Source of the DNA: Candidatus Binatia bacterium | GTDB lineage: Bacteria > Desulfobacterota > Binatia > HRBIN30 | Length of the DNA: 60,818 bases | Assembly: GCA_038245295.1 (NCBI GenBank) | Contig: JBBRSP010000035.1 | Coordinates: forward strand, 1 to 60,818 | Direction: 5' to 3' | In this document: positions 1 through 60,813 of the stretch, one piece after another | Layout of the letters: every line of letters begins with the position of its first letter | How positions within the stretch are numbered: the stretch's first letter is position 1 | The notes under the pieces: model-generated | Database searches by the model: none | Seen by the model: the letters and a program-made list of their open reading frames with translations, nothing else | What the model was told of the DNA's origin: nothing | Program-made: the position numbers and the translations under genes

Positions 1-124
1 CAAAACATAGGCTCACCCTTCGACGGGCTCAGGGCGAGCGGACAAAATGTCTTTGAAAATCAACCAAGCACCCGCTCAGGCTGAGCCTGTCGAAGCCGGC
101 TCCGCAAGGTTTTGAGACAGCCTC
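1..124 (-). mobile_element. MITE family A (134-bp TIR element), truncated by the window edge
   Basis: Exact reverse complement of 60680-60803. Ends in TIR GTTTTGAGACAGCCTC, followed by TAAA and the right arm of a GTAG-REP (GCCTGCGCCTACC). Confidence 0.8.
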
Positions 125-11528: not shown

Positions 11529-13094
11529 ATGCAAATCCACGAACCCGCACCCACGACCTTCTCCTACGACGCCTGGAGCCGATTGCTCGGCGACATCGTG
11601 ACGCCGGACGGCAAGATCAACTACGAGCGGCTCGATCAACAACGCGACGGTCTGGAAACCTTCGTGGCGCAACTGGGTGCCGTCAGCCCAACCTCCCATC
11701 CTCAGCTGTTCGCCAGTGACGAGGATCGTCTCGCCTACTGGATCAACGCATACAACGCGTTCACCTTGCACGCGATCATGGCCGAGTACCCGATCAGCTC
11801 GGTGTGGAAGACGCGCGACGGTCAATTCTTCGAGCGCCCACGCCACATCGCCGGCGGCACGCCGCTGAGCCTCAACGACATTGAGCACACGATCCTCCGC
11901 GGCCAGTATGCCGAGCCGCGCATTCACTTCGCCATCAACTGCGGCTCGAACGGCTGTCCCGCTGTCCGTCCGACGGCTTACGAAGGTGCCGGGTTACGCG
12001 ACACCCTGCGGGTCGCAACCGAAGAGTTTCTCGCCAGCACGTGGAACTGCCGCGTCGACCATGACGCCAAGCGCATTTTCATCTCTCGGCTCTTCAAGAT
12101 GTATGCGGAAGATTTCGCCGGGGTGCAGAACTCGACCGATGCTTACCGCGAAGGAGTGTTGCGCTTTGTGACGCAGCATACCGGTCTCACGTTCGAGGCG
12201 ATTCACGACTACGAGGTCATCTATAACACCTACGACTGGGGCCTGAACGACGCAAACCGCGCACCGCATCTCGGTCCGATCCTGTTCCACGAGCCCGTCG
12301 AACACTACCTCGAAGGCGACACGCAACTGCGTGAACTGCATCTCTACGAGGGCAACTTCTGCAACCGCACCTGTGATTGGTGCACCATCCACGGCTCGCC
12401 CGAGGGCTGGTATCGCAACTACTCGCGCGACGTGCTCGACAACGCATTTGCCAGCGTCGCCGTCGATGGCAACGTCAAGTTCTACGGCGGCGAGCCGACG
12501 CTGCATCACCAGGCGATCATCGACGCCATGCAGTACCTGCGCGGCAAAGGGTTTCGCGGTCTCTATACGATTTTCTCCAACGGCGTGAAGGCCGATCGCC
12601 TGCTCGAGATCCTCGACAGCGACGAGCGCTCGGAGGCCGTGCTCAACTATTCCATCTACCACGGCCGCGACGCCGAGCCACTACCGGCGCATGCTCAGCA
12701 ACGCCTCGAGGACTGGGCGCGAGTCCATCCGAATCGAATCTTCCAGGGCTACAAGATCCTCTTCCACGCCGGAGCGGGAGCCGAACGGGTCTACGATCGC
12801 GATCGCGAGGCCGACTTTCACGGCCTGGGAAATGGCTGTGTGCGCTGCTTCCCGGTGCTGACGAGCAAAGGCCAGTTCCACGCCTGCCCGTTTGCCGCCG
12901 AGATCGACGCGCCGCACTTCGACCTTGGTCGGGTTGGTTCGAAGCCGGAGACTGTTTTCGAGAACTACCGGCGCTTCCGAACCTGGGTCGACGAGACCCT
13001 CGACCCAACCGCGCGCGCCCGCGGTCTCAGCAGTTGCGAGATGTGCCACAAGCATCTCGCCGAGATGCCGGCGGCTGAGTTTCAGCGTGAGTAA
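11529..13094 (+). CDS. DUF547 - radical SAM fusion protein
   Basis: N half has WINAYNA, RIHFAINCGS..CP and YDWGLN (DUF547). C half has CNRTCDWC, YGGEPT, SNG and a Cys-rich tail CVRC/HACP/CEMC. Confidence 0.8.
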   Translation: MQIHEPAPTTFSYDAWSRLLGDIVTPDGKINYERLDQQRDGLETFVAQLGAVSPTSHPQLFASDEDRLAYWINAYNAFTLHAIMAEYPISSVWKTRDGQFFERPRHIAGGTPLSLNDIEHTILRGQYAEPRIHFAINCGSNGCPAVRPTAYEGAGLRDTLRVATEEFLASTWNCRVDHDAKRIFISRLFKMYAEDFAGVQNSTDAYREGVLRFVTQHTGLTFEAIHDYEVIYNTYDWGLNDANRAPHLGPILFHEPVEHYLEGDTQLRELHLYEGNFCNRTCDWCTIHGSPEGWYRNYSRDVLDNAFASVAVDGNVKFYGGEPTLHHQAIIDAMQYLRGKGFRGLYTIFSNGVKADRLLEILDSDERSEAVLNYSIYHGRDAEPLPAHAQQRLEDWARVHPNRIFQGYKILFHAGAGAERVYDRDREADFHGLGNGCVRCFPVLTSKGQFHACPFAAEIDAPHFDLGRVGSKPETVFENYRRFRTWVDETLDPTARARGLSSCEMCHKHLAEMPAAEFQRE

Positions 13095-13271
13095 ACGAAC
13101 GCCTCGGAGCGGCGCTTCCGTGCCGGTTCTTTGCCACAGATGAATACAGATAAACACAGCCCGGCCGATGGCCAACCAACTCAGGCCAACCAGCCCTACC
13201 TCCGTCATTCCGGCGAAAGCCGGAATCTCCCGAGCATTCCGCAGTTTCCAATCGAGGAGATCCCGGCTTTC

Positions 13272-13593
13272 GAGTGTGTCGATTTACTCGGAAACCAAAT
13301 TTGAAACCGAGCAGACCTTTCCGTCATACCGGCGAAAGAGACTGTCGATTTTCTCTGATTCATCGTTGAAACGGCGCAAACACCTCCGTCATACCGGCGA
13401 AAGCCGGTATCTCCCCATCATTTTTGGCCTTCCACTCGAGGAGATCCCGGCTTTCGCCGGGATGACGTTGCTTCATTTCACTTTATCGACAGTCTCGAAA
13501 GCCGGTACCTCGCCAGCTTCGAGGCTTCCAGCAGGGGGAGATCCCGGTTTTCACCGGGATGATGTTGCTCCACTTTGGTTTTACGACAGTCTC
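13272..13593 (+). mobile_element. MITE family B, outer (older) copy
   Basis: Degenerate TIRs GAGTGTGTCGAT / TACGACAGTCTC. TTTC direct repeats at 13268-13271 and 13594-13597. Length is 159 bp once the inner insert plus its TSD is removed. Confidence 0.75.
13338..13496 (+). mobile_element. MITE family B, inner copy (159 bp)
   Basis: Perfect 12-bp TIRs GAGACTGTCGAT / ATCGACAGTCTC. GAAA direct repeats at 13334-13337 and 13497-13500. Internal CGTC-REP doublet. Confidence 0.85.
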
Positions 13594-13888
13594 TTTCGCC
13601 GGATGACAGGTCAGGGTGACAAAATACGAGACCGAGAAACTCTTCGCCGACAAGAATCGGAACGTTTGTTACACACAGATACAGGCCCGCGGCCTGCATC
13701 GTGGCCGTTTGCTGTTGGCAAGCCATCTGTGTTCATCCCATTCATCTGTGGCCGTACCCGTCCGTGCCTGCGTTGCGTTGGCGGCTTTGCCTCCTGCCTT
13801 TCGGCACGCTGCCACCCGAGTCGCCTGACGCGAGCAATGGCATCAAACGGTTCCAGGGTCTAATGTCGCGGCCGACCAGGGAGGTCGA

Positions 13889-14521
13889 ATGAAGTTCGAC
13901 ATCATTTGCATTTCGCGCCAGGCCGCTGCCGGCGGCGAGAGCATCGGGCACGCGGTGGCGCAGCGCCTGGGCTTTCGTTACCTCGATGAGCAGATCATCG
14001 AGAGGGCGGCGTGGCAGGCCAAGATATCGCCGACGATGCTGGCGGCGGCCGAACGTCCACAACCACTCGTCAAACGTCTCATGGAAAAGGTTGGTGTGGC
14101 GACGCCGCCGACCGACATTCTTCATTGGGTACAAGGCCAGGTCGACCACCGTCCGCACGATCAGGATCTGCGCGCGATGATCCGTGCCTCCATCCTGGAA
14201 GTCGCCGCCTACGGCCGAGTCGTCATTGTTGCTCATGCCGCTTCGATGGCGCTTGCCAGCATTGCCGGCGTGCTGCGTGTGCTGGTCACTGCGTCGCCCG
14301 ACGTGCGGATCCAACGCGTCGCCGATTTCGAGCGTATCATTCCAGAAGAAGCCGAGCGGCGTATCAGCTTGTCGGATCGGGCGCGCCAGGAATACTTGCA
14401 GCGCTTCTATAACGTCGACGCGGAACTGCCGACCCACTACGATCTGGTGCTCAACACGGATCGCTGGTCGGTGGAACAAGCCGCCGAGTTGATCGTTTCT
14501 GTCGCGGATGGTCCTGCCTGA
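13889..14521 (+). CDS. Cytidylate kinase-like family protein
   Basis: IICISRQ..AGGESIG..VAQRLG, D..R..Y..RFY and YDLVLNT motifs. GGAGG RBS. Confidence 0.85.
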   Translation: MKFDIICISRQAAAGGESIGHAVAQRLGFRYLDEQIIERAAWQAKISPTMLAAAERPQPLVKRLMEKVGVATPPTDILHWVQGQVDHRPHDQDLRAMIRASILEVAAYGRVVIVAHAASMALASIAGVLRVLVTASPDVRIQRVADFERIIPEEAERRISLSDRARQEYLQRFYNVDAELPTHYDLVLNTDRWSVEQAAELIVSVADGPA

Positions 14522-24902: not shown

Positions 24903-24978
24903 CCGTCATCCCGGCGCGGGAGTCTGTTGATCTTCTGTGGAGCAGAGTTTGTCGAGATAGCGCCACCCCGGCGAAAGC
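24903..24978 (+). repeat. Eroded CGTC-REP / MITE B remnant
   Basis: CGTCATCCCGGC-GCGG, then GAGTCTGTTGAT (2 mismatches to the family B TIR), then CGCCACCCCGGCGAAAGC. Confidence 0.45.
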
Positions 24979-43454: not shown

Positions 43455-43614
43455 GAGACTGTCGATAAACTGAAATGAAGCAACGCCATCCCGGCGAAAG
43501 CCGGGATCTCCTCGAGTGGAAGGCCAAGAATGCTGGGGGGATACCGGCTTTCGCCGGTATGACGGAGATGTTTGTATGCTTTCAAACGTGCGATCAGAGG
43601 AAATCGACAGTCTC
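43455..43614 (-). mobile_element. MITE family B copy (160 bp)
   Basis: TIRs GAGACTGTCGAT / ATCGACAGTCTC. Reverse-complement homologue of 13338-13496, flanked by REP arms CGTCATCCCGGCTTTC and AAAGCCAGGG. Confidence 0.85.
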
Positions 43615-60679: not shown

Positions 60680-60813
60680 GAGGCTGTCTCAAAACCTTGC
60701 GGAGCCGGCTTCGACAGGCTCAGCCTGAGCGGGTGCTTGGTTGATTTTCAAAGACATTTTGTCCGCTCGCCCTGAGCCCGTCGAAGGGTGAGCCTATGTT
60801 TTGAGACAGCCTC
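60680..60813 (+). mobile_element. MITE family A, complete copy (134 bp)
   Basis: 16-bp TIRs GAGGCTGTCTCAAAAC / GTTTTGAGACAGCCTC. TGAA direct repeats at 60676-60679 and 60814-60817, inside REP CGCAGGC-TGAA-G. Confidence 0.85.

Follow-up and report, generated by a model that had tools for sequence, protein, structure and literature searches.

The window is a stretch of 60,818 nucleotides, contig C35 of a metagenome-type assembly (hereafter G000; 6.63 Mb, 129 contigs, 96.6% complete), and it contains a nest of mobile elements. It is very probable that these elements include MITEs with IS1182 ends and a pair of CGTC-tagged REP palindromes as cargo, that a trans-acting IS1182 transposase inserts them into the loops of REP hairpins, and that later copies nest in the hairpins of earlier copies. 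We directly observed the element ends, the 4-bp duplications of the loops, the cargo and the nested arrangement, and in sister genomes we found complete IS1182 elements that share these ends.

Architecture of the nest

The nest fills the 794-bp gap separating two co-directional genes, and its features are as follows.

11529..13094, + strand: upstream gene, in which DUF547 is fused to a radical-SAM-like domain (context)
13133..13159, + strand: left arm of a GCCACAGATG-type repeat pair, including the left arm of a 13-bp IR
13160..13672, + strand: carrier element "X", owner of the outer REP pair; about 187 bp when empty, with ACACAG on both sides
13203..13607, no strand assigned: outer CGTC-REP pair; intact REP at 13203-13230, second REP split into 13256-13271 and 13594-13607
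13268..13271, + strand: TTTC loop; the middle MITE's target duplication, left copy, with the right copy at 13594-13597
13272..13593, + strand: middle MITE, family B, 159 bp without its insert
13334..13337, + strand: GAAA loop; the inner MITE's target duplication, left copy
13338..13496, + strand: inner MITE, family A, 159 bp; IS1182-type ends (left GAGACTGTCGATTTTCTC, right GAGACTGTCGATAAA) and a CGTC-REP pair as cargo
13387..13414, + strand: first CGTC REP of the inner MITE, loop GAAA intact; matches the SRM motif
13440..13467, - strand: inverted CGTC REP, the second in the inner MITE; fits the SRM motif
13497..13500, + strand: GAAA; the inner MITE's target duplication, right copy
13537-13564: second REP of the middle MITE
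13673..13752, + strand: remainder of the GCCACAGATG-type repeat pair, terminating in the right arm of the 13-bp IR (13740-13752)
13889..14521, + strand: downstream gene, cytidylate-kinase-like (context)
43455..43614, - strand: second family-A element of the window, with 89% identity; one flank is a REP head, and the would-be duplication (TTTC and AAAG) is not clean

The inner MITE has a perfect 12-bp TIR (GAGACTGTCGAT), is flanked by GAAA on both sides, and occupies the loop of the hairpin CGTCATACCGGC-GAAA-GCCGG, just as the preliminary description had reported. Its target is the first REP of the middle MITE (head 13322-13333, tail from 13501). When the inner MITE and one GAAA are excised, the middle element becomes exactly 159 bp long with TTTC at both flanks, and the two elements can be aligned end to end. 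The middle element had been described as an older sister with decayed TIRs. Its restored length and its TTTC duplication stand, but its left end, GAGTGTGTCG, occurs in 23 of the 34 family-B copies, its identity to the nearest copy is 98.1% (96.8% for the inner element), and the B copies are at least as similar to one another as the A copies are. Therefore, B came first at this site, yet it is not an older, decayed family. The elements are short and non-coding, possess TIRs, are dispersed in multiple copies and show a 4-bp duplication at both nest levels, as is typical of MITEs. The inner element folds well beyond chance (z = -8.65 versus 200 shuffles), and an Rfam scan gave nothing above the cut-off and three chance microRNA matches below it. 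The published SRM pattern matches the nest REPs at 13203, 13387 and 13440, all three of the intact-consensus REPs tested.

Outside the two MITEs, a CGTC-REP doublet enclosed by a 13-bp IR had been proposed. The coordinates were exact, and the IR arms (13133-13145 and 13740-13752) match exactly; the doublet, however, belongs to carrier X, and the IR to an unrelated repeat family. Carrier X lies within a pair of GCCACAGATG-type repeats, the source of the IR, which is one pair of a separate dispersed repeat (29 CCACAGATGAA and 43 ATCTGTGTTCATC sites). With some 30-40 copies, the GCCACAGATG-type family also surrounds a GxxExxY gene on C10. Carrier X itself shows no TIR, and its ends are uncertain by a few bases; it has 28 left ends genome-wide and empty copies on C13, C25, C41 and C9, and its partner enzyme was found neither through the only IS110-type gene nor through three candidate ends. 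The locus is thus five layers deep, and only the two innermost layers are IS1182-type.

Two minor observations may be added. The genome has two GxxExxY genes (C10:198-539 and C12:78323-78667), each with its own short repeat family around it, and the family of the C10 gene forms the outermost layer of the nest. Elsewhere in the window (24904-24972), a lone REP head adjoins a decayed MITE left end from another cargo family.

Insertion into REP loops and a probable IS1182 partner

How general is this mode of insertion in the genome? The 10-base end GAGACTGTCG occurs 189 times in G000, mostly directly after CCGGC plus four bases. By pairing left-type with right-type ends without requiring a duplication, and by peeling nests from the inside, we obtained 107 elements, as compared to 0 in the reversed-genome control. 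Among them, 80 are 155-163 bp long, and 13 were detected only once an inner element had been removed, indicating second-round nesting. The 4-bp flanks are identical in 41 elements, differ by one mismatch in 26 and by two or more in 40, while flank matches of 3, 5 or 6 bases are rare. The 41 perfect duplications exceed the shuffled-flank expectation (mean 14.7, maximum 27 in 5000 trials). An unusual left 4-mer is nevertheless duplicated in 8 of the 35 elements that have one, and the rare 4-mers AGAT, AGTC, CGAC and TTTA are among the perfect duplications. The tabulation of flanks suggested earlier supports the duplication, although only 41 of the 107 elements have it in perfect form.

A single REP is split at its loop by 51 of the 107 elements (31 with perfect, 17 with one-mismatch and 3 with two-mismatch duplications), in both orientations (29 and 22). 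In another 26 elements, REP heads lie on both flanks, with exactly inverted loops in 12. In these cases the interior of a REP pair is gone, replaced by the element instead of the loop being duplicated, and the net gain in loops is zero; the earlier claim that each insertion creates new target sites is accordingly overstated. The remaining flanks are tail/tail (2 elements) or include at least one unclassified flank (28). In both the duplication and the replacement classes, the junction is CCGGC^NNNN on each strand. Two earlier proposals are thus supported: the elements enter REP loops with a 4-bp duplication, and they carry a pair of the same REP that they target.

Insertion into relatives, also proposed earlier, is borne out by the 71 of 201 interrupted REP heads that adjoin a MITE arm. 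By host class, 52 of the 107 elements have a flank in another TIR-MITE, an upper bound because the classes confuse family-A and carrier-X spacers. Families A and B have common ends and layout and differ in arms and spacer. B inside A is commoner genome-wide than A inside B, subject to the same noise in the host classes. B copies lie within A hosts in both orientations, and the MITEs occupy several different hosts. Our repeat token map is noisy and was used for illustration only.

Next, we asked which enzyme recognizes these ends. The initial lead was a broken IS1182-like gene (L095) that begins at the same end, found in a genome-collection scan with at least 83 loci, in which the loci listed were mostly chance matches. 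The MITE ends match full-length IS1182-family elements in sister genomes, in agreement with the earlier view of a non-autonomous DDE-type element. The first 19 bases of MITE A are identical to the left end of the IS in the relative G001; the right ends of MITEs and IS agree over 10-16 bases, and the G001 copy terminates in a B-type right end. The G001 IS protein (544 residues, encoded at L121:99-1730) scores 311.6 bits on the NCBIfam IS1182 model NF033551 (cut-off 270) and has DUF772 and DDE domains, with D179, D321 and E457 invariant among 7 of 7 aligned homologs. Matches at 40% identity or more are present in 9 of 60 relatives. Both ends were obtained at 14 of the 16 IS loci examined, giving lengths of 1725-1758 bp; the elements are located in palindromes, with 9 perfect 4-bp duplications, 3 with one mismatch and 2 loci with none. 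The IS ends adjoin CGTC-REP loops in G001 and G259 (L028; L168, L160, L175, L180); those in G013, G006, G028 and G272 are found in another palindrome, of the CCCCTCC type. Therefore, target choice differs within this IS1182 subgroup. As a separate observation, G013 contains eight recent IS1182 copies of the same subgroup (L222, L226-L232), whose 4-bp duplications are off-centre in CCCCTCC-type palindromes.

The full-length IS with matching ends that had been suggested as a check thus exists in sister genomes and is absent from the G000 assembly, where we found no cognate transposase (0 at E<=1e-20). Neither tblastn nor blastn with the sister IS revealed a partner, and the best tblastn match in G000 (25% identity) was to a different IS1182 with other ends. 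That other-ended IS1182-like element, present in several copies (C10:118600-120110, C18:1-1500, C20, C62:1-130), is not the partner, and the Pfam matches in G000 (PF05598, 6; PF01609, 8; PF13751, 6; PF01797, 5) were rejected since MITE ends are not nearby. Two scans of metagenome contigs with MITE-end patterns gave 0 matches each. The putative mobiliser of the G000 MITEs is therefore identified through its ends only, and it is either lost or unassembled, two cases that a 96.6% complete assembly in 129 contigs does not distinguish.

Cargo choice and the multiplication of CGTC REPs

What fraction of the CGTC REPs travels in these MITEs? The SRM pattern has 300 matches in G000, as compared to 29 in each control, and 142 of the 300 are inside the 107 elements. 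Our own REP-head pattern finds 556 heads in G000 and 3 in the control: 319 are beside IS1182-type MITE arms, carriers X, Y and Z contain 46, 36 and 27, respectively, and 128 are elsewhere. By state, 248 of 355 intact and 71 of 201 interrupted heads are in a MITE context. The MITEs thus contain half or more of the REPs and about one third of the sites hit, with some of these counts inflated by block movement; likewise, some copies moved passively in other carriers, which inflates the count of independent insertions. An IS1182 transposase likely moved the MITEs, and about half of the genome's CGTC REPs thus likely owe their multiplication to it.

The preliminary description included neither the Ssn homolog flanked by CGTC REPs nor the three unrelated carriers of the REP pair, X, Y and Z. 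Carrier Z is a MITE with the TIR CAATGTCGTTAAGTT, 167 bp when empty, with a CGTC pair inside, and it adjoins CCCTC-type palindromes; it has an empty copy at C11:196102-196268 and 13 other loci, as well as two 203-bp relatives with other repeats. Carrier Y has conserved arms around a CGTC pair, often enclosing an IS1182-type MITE, at about 20 loci (for example, C5:63999 and C13:33690). Taken together, about three quarters of the heads (428/556) are in four unrelated gene-less carriers. We tentatively suggest, at somewhat less than even confidence, that CGTC REPs became numerous in this lineage mainly by hitch-hiking, with the IS1182 MITE, which makes its own landing sites, as a self-feeding amplifier. 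If true, REP families that lack a dedicated transposase would have a general, enzyme-borrowing route of multiplication, and all of the genome's palindromic repeat families (GIY-YIG-, GxxExxY- and GTAG-type) would serve as sources of MITE cargo.

A different enzyme could account for the same abundance. The CGTC REPs may have been spread mainly by an Ssn-type GIY-YIG single-strand nuclease, with the IS1182 MITEs as parasites and occasional vehicles, which we consider rather doubtful. An intact 95-aa GIY-YIG gene (C22:5435-5725, L136) has SRM-matching REPs on both sides, the layout given for ssnA in the accessible part of PMC11893778. In addition, the presence of the REP pair in four unrelated carriers suggests autonomous entry, and two other small GIY-YIG genes are flanked by a repeat that other MITEs carry. 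However, what that text reports is that Ssn cuts single-stranded DNA, and amplification of the repeats by Ssn is presented there as a hypothesis (PMC11893778). Moreover, 319 of the 556 heads adjoin IS1182-type MITE arms with family-specific spacers and were thus copied with the MITE, and the nuclease route leaves the TIR and duplication junctions unexplained. With one query at E<=1e-15, an Ssn homolog was absent from 4 of 5 sister genomes (fragmented assemblies), three of which have CGTC-REP junctions. The nuclease route is compatible with the IS1182 explanation as the origin of the cargo, and it may be the source of the REP pairs or of their entry into carriers.

With regard to the nuclease genes themselves, the REPs around the C22 gene are themselves invaded by MITEs, and NCBIfam assigns its protein to no specific family. 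The two other small genes (C12:172419-172634 and C43:25299-25514) lie between CCCTTCGAC...CTCAGGGTGAGCG repeats, which two MITE families carry as cargo, and form a second nuclease-repeat pair with these repeats. As for RAYT, the REP pattern is within 1.5 kb of 0 of the 5 PF01797 (Y1) genes, three of which are near contig ends. The earlier proposal that the MITE spreads REP doublets without a RAYT thus gains support from this result and from the large share of REPs in MITEs, but the Ssn rival leaves the MITE short of being established as the only spreader.

The preliminary description also had the element capturing the palindrome that it targets. A special adaptation of this kind is not supported: same-ended MITEs, in G000 as well as in sister genomes, carry many other types of repeat, often non-target ones. 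Of 49 other genomes in the order, 10 show the exact-ended MITE pattern, as compared to none of 251 that represent the remaining orders of the class. Its cargo varies: G001 has CGTC pairs (and, in an independent assembly, nests too), G005 and G028 have GTAG-type palindromes, G259 and G019 have CCCTTCGAC-type pairs, and G037 and G015 have short tandem repeats. The cargo equals the target in G000, G001 and one G019 element, and differs from it in G037, G005, G015 and G028; G000 also contains same-ended MITEs with different cargo. Given this variety, the carriage of palindromic repeats is common in these MITEs, and carriage of the own target is a recurrent special case.

Proposed mechanism of insertion and comparison with known systems

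IS1182-mediated insertion has to be weighed against rearrangement of existing copies. We consider it improbable that most nests and mismatched flanks were produced by recombination and gene conversion between the roughly one hundred similar repeats, or by block movement of composites, instead of repeated loop-targeted insertion. Recombination clearly reshapes some loci: same-side ends are stacked 45 or 66 bp apart at many of them, 14 of 53 classed elements are A/B chimeras, and the GAAA/GAAG hybrids, frequent among the one-mismatch cases, point to recombination between copies. The recurrence of the same MITE-in-carrier-Z layout at several loci and the 40 would-be duplications with two or more mismatches fit it as well. 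The perfect duplications of rare 4-mers and the two exact nested duplications at this locus, however, are beyond its reach; B copies within A hosts in both orientations and the variety of MITE hosts also argue against it, and chimeras are not significantly enriched in the replacement class (7/16 versus 7/37, p = 0.09).

Although the assembly is of metagenome type with 129 contigs, and public contigs break at 13203 and 13724 with none crossing the nest, a short-read artefact across near-identical repeats at 13133-13752 is very improbable, because each of the two levels gives back a 159-bp family member between exact duplications, the copies differ by 2-20%, sufficient for resolution, and nests recur both elsewhere in the genome (the 13 second-round elements) and in the independently assembled G001. 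The nest is also not spanned by any contig of four runs in a single study, the best of which may be the source sample; the joints there belong to other repeat copies and are not empty alleles. In the relatives, the upstream gene is not within 1.5 kb of any of the 11 downstream-gene homologs. The empty sites suggested earlier as a check were found neither at these 11 loci nor in the contigs of the four runs; the only empty hosts are paralogous.

Returning to IS1182-mediated insertion, we propose the following scheme, modelled on the junctions.

Cargo entry: The REP pair probably entered the MITE as general cargo, like the other palindromic repeats.

Insertion: Each transposase subunit would join one element end just 5' of the loop (CCGGC^NNNN), one per strand. 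With both cuts within one hairpin, the loop would be duplicated, for a net gain of one target. With the cuts in the two hairpins of a pair, or after a later deletion between them, the interior would be lost without net gain.

Feedback: The match between cargo and target would then create a feedback loop.

A single REP pair was found to have both of its loops filled, so that direct replacement or adjacent deletion seems more likely than recombination between two insertions. A product with a duplicated pair interior was sought at four loci and was absent; the flanks there derive from different hosts. For IS1272, the accessible text of PMC5678879 models both loop duplication and stem-loop replacement, and cites a review that assigns palindrome-targeting members to IS1182.

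IS1272 of staphylococci is a close likeness: it belongs to the IS1182 DDE family and uses palindromic targets, and the two junction types modelled for it are both present here. In the same part of PMC5678879, its targets are unrelated hairpins without duplication, in contrast to the single REP family, the usual 4-bp loop duplication and the gene-less, target-carrying units found here. The insertion sequences ISRm22, ISPsy8, ISPpu9/10 and IS1397 target REPs (PMC1525189) and resemble the present case in their fixed point within the REP, the palindrome axis for ISRm22, and hybrid duplications ascribed to recombination. They belong, however, to the families IS3, IS4, IS5, IS110 and IS256 and are autonomous, and none is described in the available portion of that paper with the target REP as cargo. 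QMITE2 of Coxiella burnetii, a 150-190 bp MITE, contains a REP that an IS targets; according to the accessible sections of PMC5896051 and PMC10969869, its REP is of the GTAG type, its invader is IS1111 of another family, and the duplications are 7-11 nt long.

The CGTC REPs and SRM/NTS repeats of PMC3733652 and PMC11893778 share the CGTC tag, the 4-base loop, the head-to-head pairs and the flanked Ssn-like gene; their carriage inside MITEs is undescribed in the portions of those papers available to us. The 2013 study, as far as its accessible text goes, did not identify a dedicated transposase and proposed a wide range of such enzymes (PMC3733652), and Ssn nucleases are put forward in the corresponding part of PMC11893778 as a candidate partner enzyme of the CGTC-type SRM/NTS repeats. 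The RAYT/REPIN system (in part after PMC3733652) also multiplies REP pairs within a genome by a trans-acting enzyme. It employs an HUH tyrosine transposase and GTAG REPs, unlike the TIRs, 4-bp duplication and DDE partner seen here, with no Y1 gene beside the REPs.

The self-nesting case does not appear in the accessible part of the small-repeat review PMC3184786. In searches of the open-access literature, we found no paper on an IS1182 MITE carrying its own target REP. Within that literature, IS1182 hairpin targeting and REP-carrying MITEs were already known separately, and the self-targeting combination appears to be new. How CGTC REPs multiply was open in 2013, and the answer was a hypothesis even after the 2025 work on Ssn; in G000, about half of these REPs are demonstrable MITE cargo. 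Since the MITE ends point to a specific transposase, a single protein and a substrate of 160 bp would suffice to test the route. On a defined target, the system also yields the two kinds of junction that structure-guided IS1182 transposition is predicted to give, which makes it a clean test case where biochemical data are scarce; no new enzyme or host function is revealed by these MITEs.

Finally, a second, younger MITE family of 134 bp with the ends GAGGCTGTCTCAAAA occupies both margins of the window (1-124 and 60680-60813). It has 26 complete, near-identical copies genome-wide, which break contigs. These MITEs sit in the loop of the hairpin CGCAGGC-TNAA-GCCTGCG (225 intact), with a 4-bp duplication in 14 of 24 cases, and their cargo is a different repeat, so that this family is not self-targeting.
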